From the sequence record OQ850289: a DNA stretch of 64,000 nucleotides, one strand, 5' to 3'. Of this stretch, positions 9,130 through 59,528 are shown in pieces. The first letter of the stretch is position 1; every line of letters begins with the position of its first letter. Position numbers and translations under genes: made by a program. The notes beneath the pieces were generated by a model, which was not told the origin of the DNA, did not search any database, and saw only the letters and a program-made list of their open reading frames with translations. This stretch comes from Escherichia phage vB_EcoM_ULIM3.

Positions 9130-9497
9130 AGTGGCTAGAGGAAGCTTTTAAAAATAATATTGGTGCAATTGTAGTTGGTATTTTTAGTGTTATTGGGATG
9201 TATACCACGATGCAAGTTTCAAGTGGTAAACAAGAAGTGTCTGTCACAACAAAGTTACAGCAGCTAGATAATTATTCCAAAAGTAACTATTCAGCTATTC
9301 GTGATTTACAGTCTGACATGAGACTGATTCAGCTAGGGATGGAGAACCAGAAAGTTCAGTTAGAGAATGTTAAGGGTGAAAACGCAAAACTTACCAAAAC
9401 TCTTGATAAATTCTCTGACAGTGTGAACAATCTGGCTCAATCAGTATCAGCCTTGCAAGCTATTACTGAGAAGAACACAAAGAATACTGAAAAATAA
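9126..9497 (+). CDS. membrane-anchored coiled-coil protein
   Basis: 123 aa; N-terminal TM segment (IGAIVVGIFSVIGMY) then coiled-coil-like sequence; ATGA overlap with upstream ORF. Confidence 0.5.
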   Translation: MKWLEEAFKNNIGAIVVGIFSVIGMYTTMQVSSGKQEVSVTTKLQQLDNYSKSNYSAIRDLQSDMRLIQLGMENQKVQLENVKGENAKLTKTLDKFSDSVNNLAQSVSALQAITEKNTKNTEK

Positions 9498-9503
9498 AAT
9501 TTT

Positions 9504-11767: not shown

Positions 11768-12127
11768 TTATGGGAACAGACACTTAATGTCATCGTTTTT
11801 GAAAACGAAGCTTGTGTAGTTGTGACCATCAACATCCAACCAAACAGCCTGAACATCTACACCATCAAGATTCTGGTAAAGCTCTTTGATGAAGTGGTCT
11901 TTCACAATCTGACTGCTAGTTGTTTCCAGCTTAATGTTCGAGATTGCTGAACCTACAGCCATATAGCCCATGACACGTTTCTTCTCAGTATGCTTAATCT
12001 TACCATCTTTGTAAGCCATAATGAGATTGGAGAGAATCTTCACACCATAATACTTTTCAAGGTGAGTTGGTACGCCATAAAAGCCTAATGCGAAGTTTTC
12101 AGAGTGGATAATGTTTTCACGTTTCAT
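11768..12127 (-). CDS. hypothetical protein
   Basis: 119 aa ORF. Confidence 0.5.
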   Translation of the reverse strand: MKRENIIHSENFALGFYGVPTHLEKYYGVKILSNLIMAYKDGKIKHTEKKRVMGYMAVGSAISNIKLETTSSQIVKDHFIKELYQNLDGVDVQAVWLDVDGHNYTSFVFKNDDIKCLFP

Positions 12128-12128
12128 A

Positions 12129-12458
12129 TTAATCTGCCAACCTTAAATTGAAATTAACACCAAATTTTTCACATACTTCCAACATATACTCAAGGGAGAC
12201 GTTACCAGTGAGATGGATTATGTTGGATACACGAGCCTGAGAGATACCACAAATTTTAGCAACTTGCTCTTGAGAAAGGCCTCTGGATTTAATCTCTCTC
12301 TTAAAACGATGTGCAACGAAGTCTCTCATTTCGTCTACATCCATTGGACAAATATAACTCTCCATTTCAGCCTCTCTATCAGCCTCCCAATCATCTTGTG
12401 GGGCATAAGGGTCAAAAACCTCATTCATCTTTCTTCTTCCGTTTGCGTGAAGTGTCAA
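12129..12458 (-). CDS. putative HTH DNA-binding protein
   Basis: 109 aa; helix-turn-helix-like segment LSQEQVAKICGISQARVSNI; start may be the internal Met (MNEVF). Confidence 0.55.
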   Translation of the reverse strand: MTLHANGRRKMNEVFDPYAPQDDWEADREAEMESYICPMDVDEMRDFVAHRFKREIKSRGLSQEQVAKICGISQARVSNIIHLTGNVSLEYMLEVCEKFGVNFNLRLAD

Positions 12459-12633
12459 TCAATGAATCTATGTTTGTAGCCCTAACCTTTTCACGTTCAT
12501 CATTAAGATAATCATCAAGAGCCTTTTCAATCTGTGAATCATCTTGACAGATAACTGTAAAGACTGTAAATCCGTCTGTATCGTCAATTATCTTACCATA
12601 ACCGCTTCTGGGATGTAACTTTTTAAGAGCCAT
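12421..12633 (-). CDS. hypothetical protein
   Basis: 70 aa ORF. Confidence 0.4.
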   Translation of the reverse strand: MALKKLHPRSGYGKIIDDTDGFTVFTVICQDDSQIEKALDDYLNDEREKVRATNIDSLIDTSRKRKKKDE

Positions 12634-12634
12634 A

Positions 12635-13018
12635 TCAAATACCTGTGCAGCTTCTGTTTTCTAAGAAATACTCCACACCATACATAGCTTTTTGCATTAA
12701 ATCTTCTTTAAACTGGATACGATGATTGAGCATAGCCTGTACATCAATATCATCAGGGTGCTTCTCTTTAATGTTTGCAGATTGCAGGAAGTACTCTGCA
12801 AGAACGCGATACTGGTAGTCAGTCACCTTATCAGTCATCTCTGTCAAAGACTCTTCAGAGATGGGTTTAAGTAACTCACCATTAGCTAGAGCAACACCTT
12901 TTACAATCTGGCAAGTGTCTTCTGGAACACCTGATAAGTCCACATTTGGAAGTTCTGTTGCATTGACTGGTAAATTCATTGCCATAACCATTGCAGCAGC
13001 TAATAAAATCTTTTTCAT
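12635..13018 (-). CDS. secreted/periplasmic hypothetical protein
   Basis: 127 aa; N-terminal signal-peptide-like MKKILLAAAMVMAMNLPVNA. Confidence 0.55.
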   Translation of the reverse strand: MKKILLAAAMVMAMNLPVNATELPNVDLSGVPEDTCQIVKGVALANGELLKPISEESLTEMTDKVTDYQYRVLAEYFLQSANIKEKHPDDIDVQAMLNHRIQFKEDLMQKAMYGVEYFLENRSCTGI

Positions 13019-13068
13019 AATGACCTCAAAGTTATATTAAATTTTGTATTACATTGAGTATAAAAATA

Positions 13069-13107
13069 AGCTATAACACCTGACTTGTCAACAGATTTTA
13101 TAGCTTA
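13069..13107 (-). promoter_or_regulatory. palindromic operator-like site overlapping a TTGACA -35 element upstream of 12635-13018
   Basis: AAGCTATAA ... TTATAGCTT 9 bp inverted repeat with TTGACA in the 21 nt spacer (minus-strand reading). Confidence 0.4.
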
Positions 13108-13139
13108 TTTGGCAGATTTTTTATAAGGCTACTGCCATC

Positions 13140-13480
13140 CTTCCATACCAAACCTCACCTGACCTCGCCTAACCCTACCTTACTCCACCATACAGCACCT
13201 TATTAAAACACCCTGTTTAAAGACCTTTTAAAAAGGTAAGTCTCATTTTAATGTAGCTGAGACTAACTACCCATACCTCACCCTACCAGACCCTACCGAA
13301 CATCACTTAAAAACCCTCTTAGAAGACTCTTAAGTGATGTAATCGAATTTTAATGTAGCTCCGATTAACTACCCATACCTCACCTCACCCAACCATACCA
13401 TGCCTTGCCAGACCGCACCTTACCTCATTAAAAGACCCTCTTAAAAGACCTTTTAAAAAGGAGCCTCCGAAGAGGCTACC
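13140..13480 (-). repeat. non-coding repeat region (purine/GGT-rich on - strand) with conserved ~150 bp element
   Basis: No ORF; contains 7 bp inverted repeat AGTCTCA..TGAGACT and 10 bp inverted repeat CATCACTTAA..TTAAGTGATG; element recurs at 14720-14895. Confidence 0.6.
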
Positions 13481-13488
13481 TAGTCAAC

Positions 13489-13929
13489 TTAGAAAGGTTT
13501 TCTACGTTGCTTGTTAATGTTAGCTTTCATAGCAGCTAAATGGTTTTGCTGTTCAATCAGTCGTGAACGTTCTTGATGACTAAGCGCCATAGTGTTCACA
13601 TTCTCAATTGCTTGAGTGGCTTGCTTTAAAGCTCGACCAATCTTACCAGACATTTTGCGTTTTGCAATAGTTGCTTGATGCTTAGGTTCAACCACACGAT
13701 AACCAACACCCATTGAAGCAACCAGATAAATCTTCTCTTCTTTAAGAAGCTTTTCAATAAACTTCTCAAGTCGGTTTAGACGTGTAAGTGCATAAGCCTT
13801 CATTTCATCTTCGTACTTAACAATGTCACCTTGATAAGTTGGCTTCACAATACCTAAGAAGGTGTCCATCTCGGAATGTGATACAGTGTCGCCGTAACTA
13901 AACTTTGCTGCTAATGCTTTTGTATTCAT
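13489..13929 (-). CDS. hypothetical protein
   Basis: 146 aa ORF flanked by repeat regions. Confidence 0.55.
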   Translation of the reverse strand: MNTKALAAKFSYGDTVSHSEMDTFLGIVKPTYQGDIVKYEDEMKAYALTRLNRLEKFIEKLLKEEKIYLVASMGVGYRVVEPKHQATIAKRKMSGKIGRALKQATQAIENVNTMALSHQERSRLIEQQNHLAAMKANINKQRRKPF

Positions 13930-13931
13930 AA

Positions 13932-14537
<606 letters not shown>

Positions 14538-14589
14538 TTAGTTGATTGTTAAGTTGTTTGTAAAGAACCCTCAACAGAAGACTCTTTAG

Positions 14590-14900
14590 AAACTTGGTAG
14601 ATTTTTAACGTGGCTACTACCATCCACCCATACCTCACATCACCATACCATACCATACCATACCATACCATACCTGACCGGACCTAACCAAACTCCACAG
14701 CACCATACATCACATCACACAACCTTATTAAAAGACCCTGTTTAAAGACCCTTTAAAAAGGTAAGTCTCATTTTAATGTAGCTGAGACTAACTACCCATA
14801 CCAAACAGCACCGCACTATGCCTTACCCCACCTCACCGAGCCTCGCCCCACATCACTTAAAAACCCTTTTCAAAGACTCTTAAGGGATGTTGGTGAGTAC
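14590..14900 (-). repeat. non-coding repeat region, second copy of the conserved element plus (CATAC)6 microsatellite
   Basis: No ORF; 14720-14895 near-identical to 13195-13345; pentanucleotide CATAC x6 at 14644-14673. Confidence 0.6.
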
Positions 14901-14954
14901 CCGTTGGTTTATGCTGCTCAGTATACTCACCAAATTTTCTATGTCAACAACTTT

Positions 14955-16055
14955 TTACTCATAATCCCTAATAACTAACCCAACAGGGAACTGTAAAGAC
15001 CCCTTACGAGTCATCTTCTGGAACTGAACCGTTAAAGGCTTCCCGATAAACTCTTCAGGATGCTCAGCCAGATACTGCTTTTTCTCATGAGTGGTTTTCC
15101 ATGAGACATCTACAAAGACGTTAGGAAGAGTCTCTACAACGAACTTACCATGACCACGTTTATCAGTCTTTACACCAGTTACTTTAAACTCTTCAGTGTG
15201 CATCTTCTTGTGCTTAATCAAGAAGTATGAACGGTGACAACACTCATAGAAGGAGTCTTCAGAGATTGAACGGTACATTGCACCTTCAAACTTAGCTTCA
15301 ACCCACTTATCATGAGCTTCATCAAATTCTTCCCAAGAATTTACACGGATAGTCTGCACAGGAACAACTCTACAGGTATCCCCAAGCTCAACAATAGGTG
15401 AGTTATCAATAACTTCACGACGCTCAGGCCAAGATTTTGAATTGTCACAGATATCATACCAGTAGAATTTAAGAAGGTGACGGTCTGGATTGTCAGCATT
15501 CTTAATCATAGACACAATATCTTCTAAGTCCCAACCATGAGCATAAATCTCTCCATCAAAGTCTTCAACTTGCGGATGTAATTTAAGCAACAAAAGTAAG
15601 TCTGGTATTAGTTCTGCTGGAACGTTGTAAACAGTATTCTCACGAGAATAAGCTGTGAAACCGACTGAATCAGCATCTCTTGAAATTCTACAACGTACAC
15701 CATCCAGTTTCGGTTGAGCATCAGCAGGGAACTTCAGATACTTTGCATGACTAACCTTTGCAGCATCATGAGCAAGCTGTACACCTACCTTCTCAGTATT
15801 CTGTGCAGACTCTTTTGTGTAAGCATACCCTTTACGGTCAACTTGCTTTTTATACTTAGCAGCAACTTCAAAGAGAGCTTGCTGTTCAGCATTACGCTCA
15901 TTCTTTTTACCGATGTTTTTAGGTTCTGCTGTATACTCTTCAAACATCATCTTGCCATTTTCTTTGCCATAGGTTGTAATAACCTTGTCACCTACAGCAG
16001 TACATGACCAGATGTTAAAAGAGCCATCTTTATTTTGTTTGTACAGTATTGTCAT
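14955..16055 (-). CDS. ATP-dependent DNA ligase
   Basis: KLDGVRC adenylation motif (KxDG), EGAMY and LIKHKK downstream motifs; start set to ATG 16055 (MTILY) with GAGGA SD. Confidence 0.8.
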   Translation of the reverse strand: MTILYKQNKDGSFNIWSCTAVGDKVITTYGKENGKMMFEEYTAEPKNIGKKNERNAEQQALFEVAAKYKKQVDRKGYAYTKESAQNTEKVGVQLAHDAAKVSHAKYLKFPADAQPKLDGVRCRISRDADSVGFTAYSRENTVYNVPAELIPDLLLLLKLHPQVEDFDGEIYAHGWDLEDIVSMIKNADNPDRHLLKFYWYDICDNSKSWPERREVIDNSPIVELGDTCRVVPVQTIRVNSWEEFDEAHDKWVEAKFEGAMYRSISEDSFYECCHRSYFLIKHKKMHTEEFKVTGVKTDKRGHGKFVVETLPNVFVDVSWKTTHEKKQYLAEHPEEFIGKPLTVQFQKMTRKGSLQFPVGLVIRDYE

Positions 16056-16056
16056 T

Positions 16057-16248
16057 TTATTCCTCTGAGTGATACCAAGTATTGCAAGCATTACATGCGT
16101 AAAGCTCTAAATCATTTTTATCTGGTTTATGAAAACAGTTTGCTCCGCAGTGGCAACGAAACGGTTTTCCACCAACTGTCAGGATGAAGGATTGAACCTT
16201 TCCATCAGGAGTTCGTACAGCATTTTTATGCTTATCTTCTTTGTTCAT
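16057..16248 (-). CDS. small zinc-finger protein
   Basis: 63 aa; CHCGANC ... CNACN cysteine pairs. Confidence 0.5.
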   Translation of the reverse strand: MNKEDKHKNAVRTPDGKVQSFILTVGGKPFRCHCGANCFHKPDKNDLELYACNACNTWYHSEE

Positions 16249-16451
16249 TTTCTCTTACCACCAATCTCTACGTCAATCACTTGAACATCACCAGCAACAT
16301 CGAACTTATGAATGATGCTTTCCACAGTGTAAGTCCAACCCTCGATTCGAACCAACTCACCTTCTCGTGGAACTATTGGATTACGTTGAGCTACGGTTGT
16401 AGTGGAGTGAACAACATCATAACAGTAGATATAGTTTACTAGGACTTCCAT
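16245..16451 (-). CDS. hypothetical protein
   Basis: Track ORF 16245-16550 trimmed to the internal ATG (MEVLV) with GGTGAGGTG SD, avoiding overlap with the lipoprotein gene. Confidence 0.4.
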   Translation of the reverse strand: MEVLVNYIYCYDVVHSTTTVAQRNPIVPREGELVRIEGWTYTVESIIHKFDVAGDVQVIDVEIGGKRK

Positions 16452-16461
16452 CTTGAGCACC

Positions 16462-16719
16462 TCACCCAATAACAGTAGTGTGTGATTGACCATTTTTGCC
16501 ATAGCTATAAGATGTTGTTGTTTGAGAGTTTGGACACCTGACAACAACAATGTCTCTGCTTATGGCATCACCATGTAACTTATAGACTCTGCAATCTTGC
16601 ATCTCTGGTGGGAGGCTATAAGAAGCGTTTTTGTCCTCGTAAGAGGGATTACAGCCAGATAGAAAAATTACTCCAAGTGCAACCATTGCTTTCACACAAC
16701 TCTCAACCTTATTGTTCAC
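16462..16719 (-). CDS. putative lipoprotein
   Basis: 85 aa; signal peptide ending in lipobox-like LSGC. Confidence 0.55.
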   Translation of the reverse strand: MNNKVESCVKAMVALGVIFLSGCNPSYEDKNASYSLPPEMQDCRVYKLHGDAISRDIVVVRCPNSQTTTSYSYGKNGQSHTTVIG

Positions 16720-16851
16720 GATAGTCTACCTCTCTGTATGTTTTTAAATAGTGAGTGATGAGTTCTGGTAATTCACTACGTTTAACGTTTGAACGAAGAA
16801 GTGTCCAGTCAAAACCTTTACCAACCCTTCCCCAGAGACTGTACATTTTCT

Positions 16852-17085
16852 TCATAGCAACTCCAGAATATCAATACGTTCACCTTTGAGTACTCCAGTA
16901 CGGTCTTTTGCAATCTTACCTTCAACAATAAGAATGTGTGCAGACCTTAAAGTGTCACTGTTAAAGGCTTTTACGAACTTGCTAGGCATCACTACAATAC
17001 ACATCTCCTGAATCAACTCTGGAGTATAGCAATTGTCGTGAAGTTGCTGAATAACGTCTGCAAGTGTCATTTTTGATGTCTCCAA
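16852..17085 (-). CDS. small protein, paralogue A
   Basis: 77 aa; shares the motif GKIAKDxTGxLKGERxxIxxLL with 17273-17491. Confidence 0.55.
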   Translation of the reverse strand: METSKMTLADVIQQLHDNCYTPELIQEMCIVVMPSKFVKAFNSDTLRSAHILIVEGKIAKDRTGVLKGERIDILELL

Positions 17086-17276
17086 TACTCAATATCAATA
17101 AGTTCTTGTGCAATGCTTTTCAGATTACCTTTCAAGAAAACCTTCTCAGAACCTGAAAGAGATGAATTGTCAATTAACCTGTTCATTCTCTCAAACAACT
17201 TCTGCTTACGATTCTTGATAGTTTCCTTTGAAGCACCTTTCATCATCGCTGCATGGGTTCTTCCACGGTGGCTCAT
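17067..17276 (-). CDS. small basic protein
   Basis: 69 aa ORF between the two paralogues. Confidence 0.45.
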   Translation of the reverse strand: MSHRGRTHAAMMKGASKETIKNRKQKLFERMNRLIDNSSLSGSEKVFLKGNLKSIAQELIDIEYWRHQK

Positions 17277-17491
17277 AGTAAACTCTCAATATTTACACGC
17301 TCACCTTTCAAGTATCCTGTCTTATCTTTTGCGATTTTGCCTCCAGCGATAAAGATATCTACTCTACGTAGAACTTCAGGGTTTACCTTCAAATTCCTAC
17401 AGCTACTGCAAAGAACAATAAACAGCCCTTCAATCTCTTTTTGAGAGTAACCAGCACATTGCAACTGGACTTCAATTTCTGAAAGTGTCAT
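17273..17491 (-). CDS. small protein, paralogue B
   Basis: 72 aa; C-terminal motif shared with 16852-17085. Confidence 0.55.
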   Translation of the reverse strand: MTLSEIEVQLQCAGYSQKEIEGLFIVLCSSCRNLKVNPEVLRRVDIFIAGGKIAKDKTGYLKGERVNIESLL

Positions 17492-17552
17492 GTGACCTCC
17501 TATACAAGATACAGTATAAGGTACTCTTCCATGAGCACCTTGTCAATACTAA

Positions 17553-20252
17553 TTAGTGTACTTCAAGCCAGCTTTTACCAACCTTACCAGTACCTGTAAC
17601 AAGCGTTTCTTTCTTAAGGCCTAAGTTCTTAGAAGCTTGTCCATAATACCAGTCAGTAACTGCTTTCACTTCTGCCGTCATACTTTCTGGGCATTCCCAA
17701 CTCGTCTCATCGTGATATGCGCAGAGTAAGCGAGCACCAATAGCTGGTTGACGACCATTCAACTTCATCAAACCTTCGTCAATCATACGACGACAAGCAA
17801 GGTTAATTGCCTCATTTTGAATCTGAGCCTCTGAACCCATCAAAAGATAGTTCAATAATTTGTGTGGAGATTTACACCACAACCAAGCTCCAGCAACCTT
17901 TACAAAGCCCCCTTTAGAAATTGCAGCAGTCTTACCAAACACCTCTTCAAGAGCCTTTTTAGTTGCTTTGTAGTCAGCTTCCAAGTCATCTAGTAGCTTC
18001 TTAATTTTAGGCAAACGGATAAAGTAAGTCTGTTTAGTCAGCGCACCTTCCTGAGTAGTCGCAGCTTTAATCGTCTTAGCAAACTTCTCATCACCTGCAC
18101 CGAATAGCAGTGCATAGATACCATTCTTAGCTTTCTTACGACCTTTGCTAATCTCATGAAGAAGATTCTCATCCTGAGTAGCTCGACAAGTCAAGATGTC
18201 CTGCTCATCGTTCAAGCTAAAGTAGATACTGTTCAGTGTATGTGCATCAGTCCCTGAATAGACAACGTACAGGTCATTCTCAGAGTCATAGCGAAGGTAC
18301 TTATCAATCTCTGGGTTTAGGTACTCATCAAAATGTTTGCAGTAATAGCGTCCATCTTCTTGACGAATGAACTCAATCTCTTCTTTACCTTGCGTTACCG
18401 CTTTGGTGAAGTCTTTGTCACCCATAAAGTTACAAAGGAGAACTAGCTGGGCTGAGTTCATGTCTACAGAGACAACGTTAGTACCTTCTTCACAAATCCA
18501 CACTGCCCTCATTGGTTCCCCATAGACAGCAGCACCAGATGGTACGTTTACAATACCATATTGTGTCATACGTCCAGTTGAAGTACCAAACACCATTGCA
18601 CCAGCACTAAGGCGACCATCGGGACGAATCTGGTTCAACCAACCTTTTTCATCATCCTTTGAGTTCTCAATAGTTCTGCGTCGGTGCATCAAAGTATAGT
18701 ACTTAGCAATCTTCTGTCCAAGTTCACCTTCAATCGTATCATAAGATGATTCAGTAAGTTTTGGTGAAGTACGGATTAAGCAAGGCTCAAGCAAATCTGT
18801 GTATTTCTTCACAGACCAGTTATGCTCAATGTACTGGACACCTTCATGTTCAACATAACTTAAACCACATCGTTCCACCATTTCCTGCCACTTAGGATGT
18901 TTTGTAATCATCTTTTTATTGTCTTTGAAACGACAAACTTTGACAGGGCGACCGTCTGAGTCTTTCTTGTAGTTCCAGTCATCTGGAATCCAACCAACTG
19001 ATTTCAAGTAGTCTTTAACAACTGCTACCTGAGTCATACGAGAAACTTCAAACTCAATTGGTGTATATGGTGCATCAATCAAACCTGTGTAGCGACTTGA
19101 CTCAAGTTCAAAGTGGTTAACAACGTGGCTGTTATAGTACTTCACAGTTTTGACTGTTTTTACTGGCTTCCAGTCTTTGCACTTCTTACCAATCTTTGCA
19201 TTCAACTCATTGCAAATTGCACGAGCATCCTTCATTGCTACAAAACCTTCCTTGTACTCTTCACCAGTTACAGAGTTGGTTGGTGTATAGCAATTTCTCT
19301 TTTCAATGTTAAAAATCTTCGTAGTTGGCTTACCAAATGGTTTGATTTCGTATGTCTGCATCTCACCATTACGTACCTGCTGACGATACTTTGTCTTAGG
19401 GTACTTGGTAATTCTTTTCAGTCCATCTGCATGACCAAATGTTTCAACATACTCATTCCAAGCTTTTGCAAACTCTTCTCCAGTGACTTTACCTTTGGTC
19501 TTAATAGTTGGAGGTAGATGTGGTTCAACCTCTGAAGCAAGCTCATTAGTCAACTTGTCAAGTTCCTTTACATGGAACTCCATAAGCTCTTTATCAGCTT
19601 TCCAACCATTGATAGCTTGCTGGCTCATCCAGAAAGATGTCTCTTTAGCTCGCATGTAGGTTTCATAAGTGTCTATGCCACACTTCTTAAGCTTGAGATA
19701 CTCGTTATCAAGTGCCCGTTTAGTTTTGGCGTTAATACGGATATCTTCTACAACACGAGTGAAGATTTCTGCATTCCACACACCCCAATGCTCAATCTCT
19801 GGCTTACGAACACCAACACGAGCACCCCATGCAGCCAAGCCATGAGCACCTTTATAACCCTTTGGAGTTGGTCTATCCATCCACTGAACACGAGACTGGA
19901 TAAGAGAATCCTGAAAGAAATTACTCCACGGCTTACACTTTGGATTATCAAAGTTCCATAAATCAGGTGCAATGTGATTAAAAACCCACCAGTCATAACC
20001 GAGACCGTTATGGATGCAAAGACGTTTCGCCTTTAATGCAAACTCAATACCTTCACGCAAACCACCCTTAATGTACTTGGTGTACTTGTGACCGAGGATA
20101 GGCTCATCTGTAAAAACCCATACAGGTGGCTCTTCATCATCAGATTTATAGTCTGCGAAAGCCATTACGTGCACTTTAGTGAACTCAAGGAGTAAACCAT
20201 CAGTTTCTGTATCACCAACTAAATGTAAGTTTTTAAAATCTACGTTTTCCAT
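17553..20252 (-). CDS. DNA polymerase, family A, with 3'-5' exonuclease domain
   Basis: N-terminal exo motif GDTETDG; motif A (VVSVDMNSAQL), motif B (KxxxYALLFGAG), motif C (YHDE); start moved to ATG 20252 (MENV) with GGGAG SD. Confidence 0.85.
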   Translation of the reverse strand: MENVDFKNLHLVGDTETDGLLLEFTKVHVMAFADYKSDDEEPPVWVFTDEPILGHKYTKYIKGGLREGIEFALKAKRLCIHNGLGYDWWVFNHIAPDLWNFDNPKCKPWSNFFQDSLIQSRVQWMDRPTPKGYKGAHGLAAWGARVGVRKPEIEHWGVWNAEIFTRVVEDIRINAKTKRALDNEYLKLKKCGIDTYETYMRAKETSFWMSQQAINGWKADKELMEFHVKELDKLTNELASEVEPHLPPTIKTKGKVTGEEFAKAWNEYVETFGHADGLKRITKYPKTKYRQQVRNGEMQTYEIKPFGKPTTKIFNIEKRNCYTPTNSVTGEEYKEGFVAMKDARAICNELNAKIGKKCKDWKPVKTVKTVKYYNSHVVNHFELESSRYTGLIDAPYTPIEFEVSRMTQVAVVKDYLKSVGWIPDDWNYKKDSDGRPVKVCRFKDNKKMITKHPKWQEMVERCGLSYVEHEGVQYIEHNWSVKKYTDLLEPCLIRTSPKLTESSYDTIEGELGQKIAKYYTLMHRRRTIENSKDDEKGWLNQIRPDGRLSAGAMVFGTSTGRMTQYGIVNVPSGAAVYGEPMRAVWICEEGTNVVSVDMNSAQLVLLCNFMGDKDFTKAVTQGKEEIEFIRQEDGRYYCKHFDEYLNPEIDKYLRYDSENDLYVVYSGTDAHTLNSIYFSLNDEQDILTCRATQDENLLHEISKGRKKAKNGIYALLFGAGDEKFAKTIKAATTQEGALTKQTYFIRLPKIKKLLDDLEADYKATKKALEEVFGKTAAISKGGFVKVAGAWLWCKSPHKLLNYLLMGSEAQIQNEAINLACRRMIDEGLMKLNGRQPAIGARLLCAYHDETSWECPESMTAEVKAVTDWYYGQASKNLGLKKETLVTGTGKVGKSWLEVH

Positions 20253-20424
20253 TTTTACTCCCTCTAAAATCATTAACCTCATACATTACTGCAAAAAATT
20301 ATAAAAAGCAAGTTGACAATGTACTTGACAAGGTGTTAATCTTTGCGAAGTGGGTTTTTACTTAAAAGGTTACTTAACAGTTTAACTATACAGATACTTT
20401 AAAACTCTTAAAAGATTATTTAAT

Positions 20425-20465
20425 AGCTTTTAAAAAGCTTTAAAGTATAACGTATAGAATACGTT
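20425..20465. promoter_or_regulatory. two palindromes in the divergent intergenic region
   Basis: AGCTTTTAAAAAGCT (15 bp) and AACGTAT-AGA-ATACGTT in AT-rich spacer between polymerase and 20510 ORF. Confidence 0.4.
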
Positions 20466-20509
20466 AAGATAAAAGATTAAAACTTAATAGTTACTTAAAA
20501 GAGGCTTAC

Positions 20510-20932
20510 ATGCAGAAAATGTTTGTTCACCCAGACATAGCTGACTTTGTTAGAGCTTTGCAGAAGTTGGAAGAACTTGACATTGCTGCTCAACGGGAAT
20601 ATGCTCACCATCACAGGAGAATGGTTGATATACAACATGAAATAGAGTTGTCTGAAAACTATGAAGATGACTTAAAATGCTCTGTATTTGAGCATATGAA
20701 AGATGTTGCTACAGCTAGACGTAAAGCTAAAGACACAGTTGCTTTACTAGATTCTCTTAAAAAGAGGTTGCAAAGTGGTACAGACCTGTGTAATCTAGCG
20801 TCACTGATTAATGATGTTGAAACTTCTTGGGATAGACATTACTATCCACGTTCTGAAAAGACACTTGACTTTTCTTCATCCGAAAACTTAAAATGTTCTA
20901 GAAAGAAACTTAACCAACTGAGAGAGAAATAA
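20510..20932 (+). CDS. hypothetical protein
   Basis: 140 aa ORF. Confidence 0.55.
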   Translation: MQKMFVHPDIADFVRALQKLEELDIAAQREYAHHHRRMVDIQHEIELSENYEDDLKCSVFEHMKDVATARRKAKDTVALLDSLKKRLQSGTDLCNLASLINDVETSWDRHYYPRSEKTLDFSSSENLKCSRKKLNQLREK

Positions 20933-20933
20933 T

Positions 20934-21746
20934 ATGAATATCAATGTAGAACAAATGCTTGAAGAAAAAGGTATTGACGAAGCATTCTTAATCAATGCCG
21001 TAGAAAGCATGGCTATGATTCTTCGTGGAAACAACTATACAGAACAGTTTATGCCTGCAAGCTATAACCTGCCTAAAGACAAGTCTGATAACGGTGCTTT
21101 TGCAGAACAGGTTAATATGATGCTGTGTGACAAAACACTTGCTTTAGCATCTATTGTTGTAGGTGTTGATGCTCTTGCAGAGTTCATTTTTTATGAGATG
21201 CAGAAAAATGACTATATCGCCATGACCTCTGAAGAAAAAGACTCGCTACTGCTCTTAGGTTATGATGAGCTAGTTAACCTATTAATTTCGTCAACGAGTG
21301 CTGTTATGGCTGCTCTTGAGAAGCGCATGGAAGAGAAGCTGTCACGATATGGAAAACTTGATTGGGGTGTAGAGGAATTAAACCCACGAATCAAAGAGAT
21401 TATCCAGCAAACCAAAGATTCTTTGGAAGAAGCTGTAAAAAATGATTCTGTAGCTGACATAGAGCCACTTCAGGTGAAAGTTGCATTGATGATTCCAGCC
21501 ATCTCCACGATGATGAATATCGTTGCACTAATCCAGCTTTCACAGATGATGGGCACAAGCATTGAGTTCATTGAGAGTATGACTGGTGGTGTGAGTATGC
21601 AAGCAATCAATGATGTTCTGGTGAGCATTGGTGCTTCAATCATTGAAGAGAAGCTGCGCATTAACTTTGGTGATGATTTTGTGAAGCAAATCTCAGCTAT
21701 GGCTGAAAAAGAGTATTCACAGACTAATACTGACCAACTGCACTAA
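20934..21746 (+). CDS. hypothetical protein
   Basis: 270 aa ORF followed by terminator. Confidence 0.55.
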   Translation: MNINVEQMLEEKGIDEAFLINAVESMAMILRGNNYTEQFMPASYNLPKDKSDNGAFAEQVNMMLCDKTLALASIVVGVDALAEFIFYEMQKNDYIAMTSEEKDSLLLLGYDELVNLLISSTSAVMAALEKRMEEKLSRYGKLDWGVEELNPRIKEIIQQTKDSLEEAVKNDSVADIEPLQVKVALMIPAISTMMNIVALIQLSQMMGTSIEFIESMTGGVSMQAINDVLVSIGASIIEEKLRINFGDDFVKQISAMAEKEYSQTNTDQLH

Positions 21747-44867: not shown

Positions 44868-44897
44868 TTGACAAGGGGCTTCAAAGCCCCTTAAAAT
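44868..44897 (+). promoter_or_regulatory. TTGACA element with embedded stem-loop between rIIA and rIIB
   Basis: TTGACA-AGGGGCTTCAAAGCCCC-TTAAAAT; hairpin lacks a T-run, so terminator function is uncertain. Confidence 0.35.
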
Positions 44898-44941
44898 AGC
44901 ATCACAAAATGATTTATTAACTAACAAGAGAGAGTAATAAG

Positions 44942-51388: not shown

Positions 51389-51477
51389 AAAGTACTTTAC
51401 AAGGGGCTTATAGTTCAATAGAGTAAGCCCCAGATAAAGAGCTTTACCACTCAATCCTAAATTGGAGAATCTGAAAA
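51389..51477 (+). promoter_or_regulatory. class B intergenic element, copy 1
   Basis: AGTACTTTACAAGGGGCTTA..TAAGCCCCAGATAAAGAGCTTTACCACT..GGAGA..ATG; hairpin with TTTACA-17-TAGAGT embedded. Confidence 0.5.
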
Positions 51478-51771: not shown

Positions 51772-51856
51772 AGTACTTTACAGGGGGCTTAAAAGTTGAT
51801 ATCTTAAGCCCCAGATAAAGAGCTTTACCACTTAATCCTAAACTGGAGATTCAAAA
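51770..51856 (+). promoter_or_regulatory. class B intergenic element, copy 2
   Basis: Same conserved element with GGGGGCTTAA..TTAAGCCCC hairpin. Confidence 0.5.
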
Positions 51857-53445: not shown

Positions 53446-53516
53446 AGTACTTTACAAGGGGCTTATAGTTCGATAAAGTAAGCCCCAGATAAAGAGCTTT
53501 ACTACTCAATCCTAAA
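53445..53516 (+). promoter_or_regulatory. class B intergenic element, copy 4
   Basis: GGGGCTTATAGTTCGATAAAGTAAGCCCC hairpin and conserved flanks. Confidence 0.5.
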
Positions 53517-54576: not shown

Positions 54577-54661
54577 AGCACTTTACAAGGGGCTTATAGT
54601 CCGATAAAGTAAGCCCCAGATAAAGAGCTTTACCACTAAATCCTAAACTGGAGATTCAAAA
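54577..54661 (+). promoter_or_regulatory. class B intergenic element, copy 6
   Basis: GGGGCTTATAGTCCGATAAAGTAAGCCCC hairpin and conserved flanks. Confidence 0.5.
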
Positions 54662-55937: not shown

Positions 55938-56065
55938 TCAATAACTTACAAAAAACTTTTAAAAAAGTGTTGACAATACCCATTGACATTGGTAACTTTG
56001 TTCGAGGGGGTTATCTAAAAGGGATTCACTTAAAAGATTCTTTATAGATAAGCTCAAAAAATTAC

Positions 56066-57083: not shown

Positions 57084-57332
57084 ATGGCAACTATCCGCGC
57101 TACTGTCAATGCCTATGGCTGTTATACTCTGGACGTTAAATTCGATATTGGTGGAACTGATGAGTGTTTTTCATTAGTGAAGACAGTTATCAAACAAGTT
57201 ATTCCAGATTATAACCCTACTGATGACTTCTGGAAAGATGCTGTAAAAGAGGCATTAAACGACGAGCATCACTATCATTACTGGGGTGACTTGATTGTTT
57301 CCCTGTACTACAATAAACAAGGTTACAACTAA
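57084..57332 (+). CDS. hypothetical early protein
   Basis: 82 aa ORF followed by tandem hairpins. Confidence 0.5.
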   Translation: MATIRATVNAYGCYTLDVKFDIGGTDECFSLVKTVIKQVIPDYNPTDDFWKDAVKEALNDEHHYHYWGDLIVSLYYNKQGYN

Positions 57333-57342
57333 TCGACGCAAC

Positions 57343-57397
57343 GGGGCTAAATAGCCCCAGATACCTCAACAGCCCCTGTTTAAAGGGGCTTTTTTAC
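57343..57397 (+). terminator. tandem stem-loops ending in an intrinsic terminator
   Basis: GGGGCT-AAAT-AGCCCC then AGCCCCT-GTTTAA-AGGGGCT followed by TTTTTT. Confidence 0.7.
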
Positions 57398-57399
57398 GT

Positions 57400-58940
57400 C
57401 TATTGAATCCTTATACAATCCCTTTCCAGAATCTTATCAGACCTTAAAAGCAATAACTCTATAGTCTACTCTATAACCTCTTATCAAATCAACTTAAATA
57501 AAAGCCAATAACCCCAGAAAGGGGATGGCCCATTTAAACGCTCTATAAAGCTCTATAACAGCCTTATCAACCTAACTTAAGGGATTGCATTACCTCACCC
57601 TAAAAAGCCCTTTATAAAGCTTCTCAGAGCCTTAAAAGAATCTTATAAGGGTGTAAGCTTTATCATCTCATTAGTATTCTTGTGAATAACTAAACAACCC
57701 CTTGATAGTCACTAAAAAGTATGTTATAGGGGGCTTTAAAGTTACTTTGAAGTAGCTTAAAAGTTACGTAAAAGAGGCTATAAAGTTACGTAAATGCTAG
57801 CCCCCTTAACATTTTCTTAACAATTTCTTAACAATCCCTACATAGTTATGCTTTTAAGGCACTTGTTAGCAACTTGTTAGCCCCTTGTTAAATCTCTGTT
57901 AAGACCACGTAAAAGCCTTGTAAGAGTCTTTGACATAGCCTTAAAAGCTCCTGTAAAGCCCTATAAAGAGGTATCTGTACAGTTGGGGGATAGATACTAG
58001 GAAGAGGTTTAAAAGAGGCTATAAAGAGCTATAGAGAGCTTTTAAGAGGTATGTTTAAGGAATCACTAAGAAGCAAAGGGAACGATAAGAAAAGAGTAGT
58101 GACCATGTTAATAGCTTGTTAAAAAGATTAAACACTTGTTAAAAACTTGTTAATTATCTTAACAAAATAACTCTTAAAAATTAACTTGTTAGCTCTTGTT
58201 AGTCATCTGTTAAGAGACTATAAAGACCATGTATCGACTGTTAAGAACTTGTTACAGCCTTGTTAGTTCTGTTAAGAATCTGTTAAGACCTTTGAAGAGT
58301 TGTTAAGAAGATGTGAGAGCTGTTAAGAGATTGTTAAGGATATTTTAAAATTTTGCAAAGTACTTGTAAGGGAGCTGTTAAGGGCTACCAAGCAGATATA
58401 CATCTTCTACAGATATTTTTGAGTTCCTTCAAAGACCCTAAAAAATGACTTGATAGTCCTATTTTATAAAAATTTTAAGATTCTGAATAATTACCTATAC
58501 AGTCTTTTAAAAATACAGGCAGAAACAGGCTTATAAGATACCTTGTTAGTACCGTGTTAGACCTTGTGAGATAAGGTCTGTAAAGATATTCCTGTTAAGT
58601 TTGTTAAAACAGTCTATATAGAGGCTTAGTATTCCCTAGTGAACACCTATAGAGAGTGTCATAGGTAACATAGAGATTAAGAGGTGTATAGGAGCTTCTA
58701 AGAAGGTGTAGAGAGATGGTTAAGGTGATTGTATAGGTTGTTAAGAAGGCTTGTTAGAAGAGTGTTTAGAAGGGCTATACAGAGGGGCTATTAAGACCAC
58801 TAGATAGTTACTAAGATACTATATAGTACTATATAACTATATATAGAGAGTAAGATTAAGAAGGTTGTTAAGAAGGGTAGATATTTTATTCACATATGAT
58901 GGTGACCCAGAGGTTGGGACAACCGATAAAATTTTATAAA
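57400..58940. repeat. ORF-free region dense in short degenerate motifs
   Basis: No ORF >60 aa on either strand; >25 copies of (C/T)TGTTA(A/G)(G) and CTATAAAG-like motifs; purine-rich + strand; between convergent units. Confidence 0.7.
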
Positions 58941-58968
58941 AATTAAAAAGCCCCCGATTAAGGAGGCT
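58938..58968 (-). terminator. putative intrinsic terminator for the minus-strand cluster
   Basis: Minus-strand reading: GAGCCTCC-TTAATC-GGGGGCT followed by T-rich run. Confidence 0.45.
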
Positions 58969-58979
58969 CTTAAGATATT

Positions 58980-59528
58980 TTAAATCAGTGTTTCCAGAAC
59001 TGTTTTTAATGATGACTTGGTTGTCTGATAAAAATGAGTAAATCCATTGTTGTTATCAAATACCTGCATCATGATATCATCTCCCTTGATTGGGTACACT
59101 CGGATATCATAGTGAAAACCATTAAAGACACAAGAACCACTACAGAATGCTCTAAAGTCATCCACTGAGATGTACTCTTCATGACCTGTGATTTTTATAC
59201 AAACACCTTTACTCGGTCTCTTAGGGTTGATATCTTCCATCACAGACATACTCTGTCCACCAAGAGATACCATAGTGACTACTTTACGGTTCTTCTGTCT
59301 AAAGTACATCTTAACTTTCTGCAAAGTGTCTTCATAGAACGGATAAGACCTTTCTACAAAGATTCCTTCAAGTGGCTCTTTACCATTTTCAACTTCTCTG
59401 TTATGCCGTACTGCAAAGATAATTTGTTCGAACCAGTCAAGATTTTCTTCGGAGAGTGCTTCCCGAATATCACTCCAATCAAGAACTAGATAGTTACCTT
59501 CAACTTCTTTTAAGTTATCTTTTTCCAT
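58980..59528 (-). CDS. hypothetical protein
   Basis: Track ORF starts at a TTG codon (59573); first ATG is at 59528 (MEKDNL). Confidence 0.5.
   Translation of the reverse strand: MEKDNLKEVEGNYLVLDWSDIREALSEENLDWFEQIIFAVRHNREVENGKEPLEGIFVERSYPFYEDTLQKVKMYFRQKNRKVVTMVSLGGQSMSVMEDINPKRPSKGVCIKITGHEEYISVDDFRAFCSGSCVFNGFHYDIRVYPIKGDDIMMQVFDNNNGFTHFYQTTKSSLKTVLETLI

Follow-up and report, generated by a model that had tools for sequence, protein, structure and literature searches.

Phages of the SUSP1 clade carry VIPR, a class of RNA-guided silencing system described only in 2026. The Vipr protein polymerises on guide RNAs (vrRNAs) that are composed of alternating GGY and NN elements and are capped at the 3' end by a pseudoknot, and the resulting complex uses a gapped RNA-DNA code to silence competing phages and satellites (bioRxiv 10.64898/2026.04.26.720920, 10.64898/2026.04.26.720927). 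Expression of the vrRNAs and their binding by Vipr have been demonstrated for SUSP1, and the pseudoknot tail has been described for its clade (both in these two preprints). The Vap proteins of type II loci are predicted DNA binders that enhance VIPR defence (10.64898/2026.04.26.720920). Neither preprint (.720920 or.720927) describes promoters, terminators or palindromes in the locus, and palindromes are not among the components by which VIPR is defined. Here we examine a 64,000-nucleotide stretch of Escherichia phage vB_EcoM_ULIM3 (OQ850289; hereafter the window), and in particular three palindromes, designated (a), (b) and (c), which an initial annotation had proposed as operators for phage regulators such as a nearby helix-turn-helix (HTH) protein.

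A second class of known elements is also relevant. Promoter-early stem-loops (PeSLs) of T4-type phages are ~100-bp cassettes with a strong sigma-70 promoter and an A/T-rich upstream region (Arbiol et al. 2010, PMC2839356; Comeau et al. 2014, PMC4122927). Their stem-loops may overlap the -35 or -10 element, can include G-T pairs, and terminate or attenuate upstream transcription, and the cassettes are associated with indels and located at sites of modular exchange (PMC2839356, PMC4122927). The source of the window is a Felix O1-like myovirus of the genus Felixounavirus. No recognisable promoters near the polymerase were identified in the genome paper on Felix O1, which left temporal control open (PMC3185647), and a preprint on gene essentiality in Bas63 makes no mention of palindromes or related elements.

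Our analysis suggests, with a probability that we put at roughly 55%, that the three palindromes are three different promoter-region stem-loops rather than the operator set of one regulator, and that (a) closes a vrRNA array. In this reading, (a) would form the 3' boundary of the vrRNA array in a type II VIPR locus. On the minus-strand transcript it would fold into a 19-bp A/U-rich stem-loop followed by UUAUUUUUAU, and it would stop or attenuate transcription leaving the last vrRNA, whose mature 3' end would be the pseudoknot. The same DNA, in which the upstream arm is A/T-rich, the loop contains TTGACA and the 3' arm contains TATTTT, might also act as a sigma-70-type promoter that would restart transcription into genes 12635-13018 and 12421-12633 and the HTH gene. 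Palindrome (c) would be a small stem-loop between a tandem TTGACA promoter and gene 20510, most simply a leader-RNA hairpin and alternatively a covarying hairpin that overlaps a -10 element. Palindrome (b) would be a conserved, recurrent A/T palindrome of the CTTTTAAAAAG type inside an array of CTTAAAAG-like units. The features around (a) are as follows.

12129-12428, minus strand: gene for the Cro/C1-type HTH protein named in the initial annotation (PF01381, E = 6e-10)
12421-12633 and 12635-13018, minus strand: genes that form, with the HTH gene, the operon downstream of (a)
13019-13488: region A, non-coding, between the minus-strand genes 13489-13929 and 12635-13018
13045-13145, minus strand: conserved block of ~100 bp with pseudoknot tail, (a) and promoter, ending at the mosaic junction before gene 12635-13018
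13063-13091, minus strand: predicted sigma-70-type promoter-like site, TTGACA (13091-13086), 17-nt spacer, TATTTT (13068-13063)
13064-13110, minus strand: palindrome (a), 19-bp stem with loop UUGACAAGU; proposed terminator or attenuator stem for the last vrRNA
13110-13142, minus strand: tail of the terminal vrRNA, H-type pseudoknot AAGG-A-UGGCAG-UAG-CCUU-AUAAAAAAU-CUGCCA, abutting (a)
13142-13426, minus strand: three vrRNA tracts of the form (NNGGY)n downstream of vap (13372-13426, 13270-13299, 13142-13201), each followed by a pseudoknot tail
13300-13340, minus strand: 19-bp hairpin CAUCACUUAAGAGUCUUCUAAGAGGGUUUUUAAGUGAUG between two vrRNAs, the second-longest perfect inverted repeat (11-nt arms), -19.7 kcal/mol, with no U-tract
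13462-13477, minus strand: G+C-rich terminator-like hairpin AGCCUCUUCGGAGGCU then CCUUUUUAAAAGG, just past the vap stop codon, -12.7 kcal/mol
13489-13929, minus strand: gene in the vap1 position (146 aa), assigned solely by its position next to vipr
13932-14519, minus strand: vipr, encoding a RAMP-like protein that matches PDB 36pp_D, 'SUSP1 Vipr protein', over its full length (residues 1-195, E = 6e-128)
14627-14849, minus strand: two vrRNA tracts upstream of vipr (14795-14849, 14627-14691), each with a pseudoknot tail

Positions 13110-14954 of the minus strand are, judging from their sequence, a complete type II VIPR locus that comprises Vipr and five vrRNAs with GGY/NN repeats and pseudoknot tails. 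The order on this strand is a promoter at 14947, two vrRNAs, vipr, vap and three vrRNAs. As in SUSP1, there is a Vipr match, an adjoining accessory gene, vrRNAs of 6-13 NNGGY units with an invariant 3' pseudoknot tail, and vrRNAs on both sides of the genes; the window differs in having 2 + 3 vrRNAs rather than the 1 + 3 of SUSP1. Vipr has 520 homologs. The protein in the vap1 position has no Pfam or PDB match and retains 99-100% amino acid identity across genera.

A search of the whole window recovered five NNGG(T/C) tracts of 6-13 units, all on the minus strand and all within 13019-13488 or 14520-14954. NN is hypervariable and differs even among near-identical phages, whereas GG(T) is constant. 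Among relatives, the distribution of tract lengths has its peak at 12 units, in agreement with the 12 Vipr protomers observed by cryo-EM. Every tract is followed by a conserved tail of ~35 nt that fits an H-type pseudoknot. In type 1 tails, 165 of 165 cells are paired and three pairs are changed on both sides, one of them by way of G-C, G.U and A-U; in type 2 tails, 98.6% of the cells are paired and both stems show changes on both sides. We found these tracts independently, through their 5-nt periodicity and covariation, and identified them afterwards through PDB 36pp and the preprints. A reading of the tracts as elements of TRAP-like attenuation, with a 5-nt period and ~12 units, was dropped once the PDB match to Vipr and the VIPR preprints were known. 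No Rfam family reached its gathering threshold anywhere in the window, and the single match within 12950-15000 was a chance snoRNA. The CAUCACUUAAGAGUCUUCUAAGAGGGUUUUUAAGUGAUG hairpin has a paralogous copy at about 14850-14890, ahead of the first tract, so that it directly precedes two vrRNA tracts, and it carries single uncompensated mismatches in some genomes; it may be a leader or processing element.

Palindrome (a) exists as initially annotated, with AAGCTATAA at 13068-13076 and TTATAGCTT at 13098-13106, apart from a start coordinate (13069) that was one base off. It also overlaps the TTGACA upstream of gene 12635-13018 that had been noted, since its loop sequence TGTCAA reads TTGACA on the minus strand (13091-13086). 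The perfect arms are longer than first stated, at 13 nt each (AAATAAGCTATAA at 13064-13076 and TTATAGCTTATTT at 13098-13110) with a 21-nt spacer. If one internal mismatch and one G.T (G.U) pair are allowed, the stem extends to 19 bp and leaves a loop of 9 nt. This is the longest perfect inverted repeat with a spacer of at most 25 nt in the 64 kb, and arms of 13 nt or longer arose in 7 of 200 dinucleotide-preserving shuffles of the window. The element lies 46-92 nt upstream of the ATG at 13018. Its predicted folding energy as RNA is -17.2 kcal/mol for the minus strand versus -13.0 kcal/mol for the plus strand, an asymmetry that is due to the G.U pair, and only -10.7 kcal/mol as a DNA stem; the fold has a z-score of -3.77. 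Directly after the stem on the minus strand comes the U-tract UUAUUUUUAU, with 8 U in 10 nt, and the stem is flanked by an A-tract on its 5' side. These features recall an intrinsic terminator at the end of a small-RNA gene, and the A-tract and U-tract flanks are like those of bidirectional terminators.

The role proposed for (a) is supported by its linkage to the terminal vrRNA. We compared the sequence upstream of the 12635-13018 homolog in 41 distinct versions: 34 contain (a), which in every case immediately follows the last vrRNA's pseudoknot tail on its 3' side, and the seven without it are Mooglevirus-like and all lack vrRNAs. Twenty-five of the 34 loci have both vipr and vap, and the other nine have one or two 'orphan' vrRNAs and no vipr. 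We had at first linked (a) to the vipr/vap genes; this was corrected, as the element tracks the terminal vrRNA (34/34 versus 0/7), including at loci that lack vipr. In the window, (a) begins at the final base of the last vrRNA pseudoknot (13110). Minimal loci, with a gap of 276-285 nt, contain a promoter, a leader hairpin, one vrRNA, (a) and the next gene, and thus have the makeup of a complete small-RNA gene in which (a) is the sole terminator-like element.

The orphan vrRNAs occur in nine distinct Felixounavirus junction versions, where tracts with tail, promoter and (a) are present and the locus has neither vipr nor vap. Examples among IMG/VR Felixounavirus contigs, labelled here by L numbers, are L004, L008, L014, L019-L022 and L024. 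The VIPR preprint mentions satellites with their own vrRNAs and does not mention phages that lack vipr. Orphan vrRNAs could use the Vipr of a co-infecting phage, or could serve as decoys.

The arms of (a) are invariant in 24 close relatives, and only the internal-loop A and the wobble G vary inside the stem-loop. The stretch from the tail to the hexamer TATACT (~13055-13145, ~90 bp) is free of substitutions in Escherichia phage SUSP2 and Citrobacter phage Moogle, and in Shigella phage Sf18 the only differences from the conserved block are at the upstream edge of the tail; alignment with all three breaks down just past TATACT. Overall, the block has 0-1 substitutions per 100 bp across three genera, compared to ~12 per 100 bp expected from the third-codon identity (84-91%) of the adjoining vipr and vap genes. 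A metagenome scan that took the loop of (a) as its anchor added eight contigs, in all of which the arms are unchanged.

We had initially taken this three-genus invariance as deep conservation, a view that was corrected since the vipr/vap cassette is less diverged than its flanks. In a comparison of window positions 13010-14959 with the relatives L026, L027 and L028, the genes upstream of (a) retain 94-96% DNA identity across genera and 84-91% identity at third codon positions, while third-codon identity is 70-74% for the ligase gene and 52-66% for the HTH gene. At the protein level, the vipr and vap products are 98-100% identical across genera and the product encoded just downstream of (a) is ~34% identical. 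The vipr/vap cassette is missing entirely from several Mooglevirus genomes. Because the cassette is far less diverged than the flanking ligase and HTH genes and is absent from these genomes, the data suggest that it was recently exchanged between phage genera. The contrast in conservation around (a) therefore partly reflects a mosaic junction. Conservation of the (a) block is shallower than first read, yet its identity lies far above that of third codon positions.

With respect to promoter function, TTGACA-17-TATTTT at (a) has 10 of 12 consensus matches in a pattern search, with the predicted -35 inside the loop, the -10 in the 3' arm and UUAUUUUUAU, and the A/T-rich sequence CCTTATAAAAAATCTGCCAAATAAGCTATAAAATCTG upstream. 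The site coincides with a predicted promoter in the annotation of phage AYO145A. Two natural variants alter TATACT and none alters TATTTT, and for this reason TATTTT is favoured as the -10. Promoter-like matches as such are not enriched in 12000-21000, where a consensus scan gave 25 versus 20.6 +/- 5.5 expected. Other intergenic regions showed no common late-promoter motif.

Evidence for selection on base pairing comes from a related promoter at the other end of the VIPR locus. Its features, and the arms of its inverted repeat in different genomes, are listed below.

14890-14947, minus strand: predicted promoter TTGACA-16-TATACT (14947-14920), 11 of 12 consensus matches
14924-14933 and 14890-14899, minus strand: inverted repeat TTGGTGAGTA / TACTCACCAA, overlapping the -10
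Repeat arms in the window: TTGGTGAGT / ACTCACCAA
Repeat arms in L055: ATAGCAAGT / ACTTGCTAT
Repeat arms in L056 and ESh22: TTAGTGGGT / ACCCACTAG
Repeat arms in L058, 3HA14 and Sf14: CTGACGGGT / ACCCGTCAG

With arms of 10 nt, this repeat belongs to the third-longest class in the window. Where the vrRNA module is missing from a genome, the same promoter stands directly before the 12635-13018 homolog, with a repeat at the same position and unrelated arms. The promoter and repeat were seen in the window and in L055, L056, L058 and L066-L070. Across four unrelated arm sequences, 54 of 54 cells are paired and 6 of 9 pairs are changed on both sides, and sliding the partner by 1-3 columns as a control reduced pairing to 30-44%. 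Because the arms change wholly between genomes and yet stay complementary, the comparison shows that base pairing, and not a protein recognition sequence, is selected at this promoter. The promoter core AAAGTTGTTGACA is the only part that recurs between promoters.

Palindromes (b) and (c) lie in a second non-coding region, which has the following features.

17553-20282, minus strand: DNA polymerase gene
20283-20509: region B, non-coding, between the DNA polymerase gene and gene 20510-20932
20313-20330, plus strand: tandem TTGACA hexamers, 12 nt apart, with A/T-rich DNA upstream; candidate early promoter of the rightward replication operon
20425-20439, no strand assigned: palindrome (b), 7-nt arms with core CTTTTAAAAAG
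20448-20466, no strand assigned: palindrome (c), TAACGTAT-AGA-ATACGTTA, in which a stem of 7-8 bp closes a 3-nt loop; the ATG at 20510 lies 44 nt downstream
20510-20932, plus strand: gene downstream of region B, in the rightward replication operon

Both palindromes are present where the initial annotation had placed them, (b) as AGCTTTT-A-AAAAGCT at 20425-20439 and (c) as AACGTAT-AGA-ATACGTT at 20449-20465, with the perfect arms of (c) reaching 8 nt (20448-20466). By themselves they are unremarkable, as arms of these lengths occur at chance level in A/T-rich DNA. At a minimum arm length of 7 nt, the window as a whole has 171 repeats (shuffles, 121 +/- 9), and at a minimum of 8 nt it has 47 (shuffles, 32 +/- 6). 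Because the statistics within the window are at chance level, the case for (b) and (c) as real elements depends on comparative data. Identity of region B is 98-100% among Felixounavirus members and 80-87% in comparison with Suspvirus and Mooglevirus, and the TTGACA pair at 20313/20325 is invariant across the three genera. A second candidate tandem-TTGACA promoter is located at 55970-55988 on the plus strand; the spacing within the pairs is 12-13 nt, with an A/T-rich tract before and CTTAAAAG-like units after.

Among 16 haplotypes of (c), all seven pairs are kept with no unpaired cell, and two pairs are doubly changed (A-U to U-A and C-G to U-A), while the loop varies from AGA to AAC. The stem is thus kept by compensatory substitutions. 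The hairpin is weak (-5.8 kcal/mol) and clear of the ribosome-binding site. Its centre also reads TAGAAT or TAACAT, which fits the -10-like hexamer TAnnnT. Palindrome (b) is part of a 40-nt block that is invariant across three genera. Exact copies of CTTTTAAAAAG occur at 13225, 13450 and 20427, all in regions A and B, and at most one mismatch yields 17 copies in the window versus 5.3 +/- 1.9 expected. The region A copies are the U/A-tracts that follow vrRNA tails and the vap terminator. Region B can be parsed into units of ~11 nt that end in TAAAAG, TAACAG or TATAG, and of the 80 occurrences of CTTWAMAG in the window, 32 fall within the 11% that is intergenic. Erwinia phages L030 and L032 (about 9440-9475) and Pectobacterium phage Arno162 (L031, about 9300-9500) retain, ahead of their 20510 homolog, the array of units that resemble CTTTAAAG and CTTAACAG; these more distant Ounavirinae have neither the HTH gene nor (a). 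Readings of AGCTTTA-12-TAGAAT at (b)/(c) as a T4 MotA box and of CUCUUAAAA as a boxA would rest on resemblance and were not adopted.

Compared with PeSLs, the elements in the VIPR locus are similar in several respects. The sigma-70 boxes at (a) (10/12) and 14947 (11/12) are near consensus as far as sequence can tell, with A/T-rich DNA upstream of (a), and a stem-loop with G-T pairs lies over the -35 at (a) and over the -10 at 14947. In addition, ~100 bp are conserved, the elements are intergenic and sit at indel or mosaic junctions, and the promoter boxes are fixed, whereas the stems differ in sequence from cassette to cassette. The elements differ in that the phage lineage is Ounavirinae rather than T4-like, that (a) has a long (19 bp), A/U-rich stem where PeSLs pair a G-run with a C-run, and that the unit upstream of (a) is a vrRNA guide array rather than an ORFan.

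Several observations weigh against our interpretation. Termination, promoter activity and the strand and molecule in which the stems fold are deduced from sequence. Palindrome (a) is single-copy in the window, whereas classical PeSLs are defined by many recombinable copies, so it could not alone mediate recombination between repeats. As an intrinsic terminator it would be atypical, with an A/U-rich stem of only 4 G-C pairs, an A-U base pair at the bottom, a 9-nt loop and an overlapping promoter, and a terminator scan made no call at this site because its loop limit is 8 nt. The element lacks covariation of its own, such that its pairing is argued by analogy and from strand asymmetry; a search for diverged versions of (a) in our phage collection, IMG/VR and one metagenome scan yielded invariant arms only. 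Perfect invariance of arms and loop also fits sequence-specific protein recognition. Since (a) shows no covariation of its own, protein binding there, by Vap1 or another factor, is possible. Distant Vipr homologs (37-50% identity), in the skin-metagenome phage L079 and contig L082, are flanked by GGY/NN tracts (L079 2608-2960; L082 2851-2911 and 4070-4230) with different tails, that of L079 holding the tRNA T-arm-like GGTTCGACTCC, and no comparable hairpin follows the last vrRNA in either locus. Therefore, (a) is a feature of this phage clade and not of VIPR generally. At 14947 the 5' arm of the repeat sits upstream of the predicted transcription start, so that the hairpin would form only in read-through RNA or in DNA. 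For (c), the compensatory changes do not decide the strand or the molecule (RNA or DNA), and Erwinia and Pectobacterium relatives have lost the palindrome and have a canonical TTGACT-18-TATGAT promoter in its place. Lastly, the symmetry of (b) is not strict and shifts in some genomes.

The proposal that the palindromes are regulator sites at promoters is borne out insofar as they lie in conserved, promoter-bearing intergenic regions under selection, but the part that made them operators of the HTH protein is not. In such a model, the protein (12129-12428) would bind (a) and autoregulate its operon in the manner of phage repressors or of the controller (C) proteins found in restriction-modification systems. 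Dyad symmetry does extend over the promoter of the regulator's own operon, in an element of ~35-47 bp that brackets the -35 and overlaps the -10, and the protein is a genuine HTH_3 member with 71-77% identity across genera. Its recognition helix and (a) are both invariant across three genera, the gene and (a) are both confined to Felixounavirus, Suspvirus and Mooglevirus, and invariant arms and loop are compatible with sequence-specific recognition. A further match of this protein to PDB 8vd6, 'CAP REPEAT', is uninformative as that entry is a designed repeat protein. The HTH gene, however, is found in 41 of 41 distinct loci with the helix ISQ(A/S)RVSNI conserved, with or without (a), and the seven loci that lack (a) keep the same recognition helix while (a) tracks the terminal vrRNA instead. 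Dimers of the Cro/CI type bind half-sites roughly one helical turn (~10 bp) apart. In (a), 34 bp separate the centres of the two arms; (b) and (c) are of compatible size, but their sequences are unrelated. No half-site is common to (a), (b), (c) and the 14947 repeat, and the window contains no second copy of the (a) arm that could serve as a further operator, the 8 additional copies at up to 2 mismatches comparing to 4.6 +/- 1.9 expected by chance. Inverted repeats that bracket a -35 are not a general feature either, with one other weak case in the window (53946) and none in distant relatives. Furthermore, at the sister promoter and at (c) the sequence is free to change while complementarity is retained, which is the signature of a nucleic acid stem and not of a fixed protein site. 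We therefore consider binding by the HTH protein very unlikely. The same judgement applies to (a) as the operator of a protein that moves together with the vrRNAs, such as the predicted DNA binder Vap1 (13489-13929), which would couple VIPR to the downstream operon. Palindrome (a) does belong to the VIPR/vrRNA module, Vap proteins of type II enhance defence and are predicted to bind DNA (bioRxiv 10.64898/2026.04.26.720920), and Vap is as conserved (99-100%) as (a). The 34-bp arm spacing counts here too, and Vap is not required for (a), since nine distinct loci carry the palindrome and vrRNAs and lack both vipr and vap; this version of the operator idea is likewise improbable.

Two further explanations were weighed. 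The inverted repeats might act as DNA, in the form of cruciforms or single-strand hairpins at promoters or a replication origin, where they would, for instance, make promoter control dependent on supercoiling or provide recombination hot spots that move cassettes. Such a role would account for the placement of the 14947 5' arm before the predicted start, which keeps the hairpin out of its own transcript, and for the location of elements at mosaic junctions; PeSLs have been proposed as recombination sites (PMC2839356), and the polymerase/20510 region is A/T-rich and dense in short repeats. We regard it as highly doubtful, given that the G.U (G.T) pairs in (a), the 14947 hairpin and the pseudoknot stems occur only on the sense strand, which favours RNA, and that (a) is a weak stem as DNA. 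It is also unlikely, though less so, that (b) and (c) are functionless by-products of the A/T-rich CTTAAAAG-like array or of overlapping -10-like hexamers. Arms of 7-8 nt at chance level, the ~11-nt units of the region, the alignment of the (c) centre (TAGAAT/TAACAT) with the true -10 in Erwinia phages, and the shifting symmetry of (b) would all be expected, but the two double substitutions that preserve seven pairs of (c) in 16 haplotypes are hard to reconcile with a lack of selection for pairing, and (b) resides in its 40-nt block that is invariant across three genera. In a more elaborate view, (a) would be a dedicated, clade-wide boundary module of vrRNA genes, a terminator/promoter switch that controls the share of transcription passing out of the guide array into the HTH operon. 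Together with the covarying 14947 hairpin, it would supply conserved flanks for the gain, loss or reduction of vrRNA/VIPR cassettes between phage genera (reduction being the orphan vrRNAs of phages that lack vipr); we offer this view tentatively and think it unlikely.

Additional repeats occur elsewhere in the window, and the repeated elements of its small-open reading frame (ORF) region at 50-57 kb are listed below.

50915, 53081 and 53946, plus strand: repeated promoters
55535 and 56695, minus strand: repeated promoters
51403-51431, 53458-53486, 54589-54617 and 51784-51812: repeated hairpins

These promoter-plus-stem-loop repeats consist of TTGACA followed by GGGGAGGGAATGACCTTCCCC and of GGGGCTTA...TAAGCCCC hairpins. 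They correspond to the 39- and 57-bp repeats of the Felix O1 paper and resemble the PeSLs of T4-type phages. A separate stem-loop lies between the -35 and -10 of a promoter at 44868 (44868-44900). At 57333-58979, 1.6 kb without an ORF are densely filled on both strands with units of ~10-11 nt (CTTGTTAG, CTGTTAAG, CTTAAAAG, CTATAAAG), including 27 of the 80 CTTWAMAG occurrences in the window. This segment is 92-95% conserved in Felixounavirus, where it is unannotated, and possibilities for its function include an origin, a packaging site or a protein-binding array. The window is also mosaic relative to database phages. Positions 12000-21000 are closest to Escherichia phage VpaE1_ev035 (99.5% identity) and 93-95% identical to many Felixounavirus genomes, whereas 57300-59000 are 99.9% identical to vB_EcoM_ULIM8 and only 94.9% identical to VpaE1_ev035.

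Felix O1-like phages are widely used in typing and biocontrol. Early promoters with structure-selected stem-loops, as in T4-type PeSLs, would provide concrete elements for the temporal control that the Felix O1 genome paper left open (PMC3185647). Pursuing the operator idea outside the context of VIPR would probably target the wrong protein. In VIPR itself, (a) marks the exact 3' edge of the vrRNA array, at a step, guide-RNA transcription and termination, on which the published work is silent. A terminator/promoter at the end of the array would aid the annotation and engineering of VIPR loci, as well as an understanding of how these cassettes move between phages.

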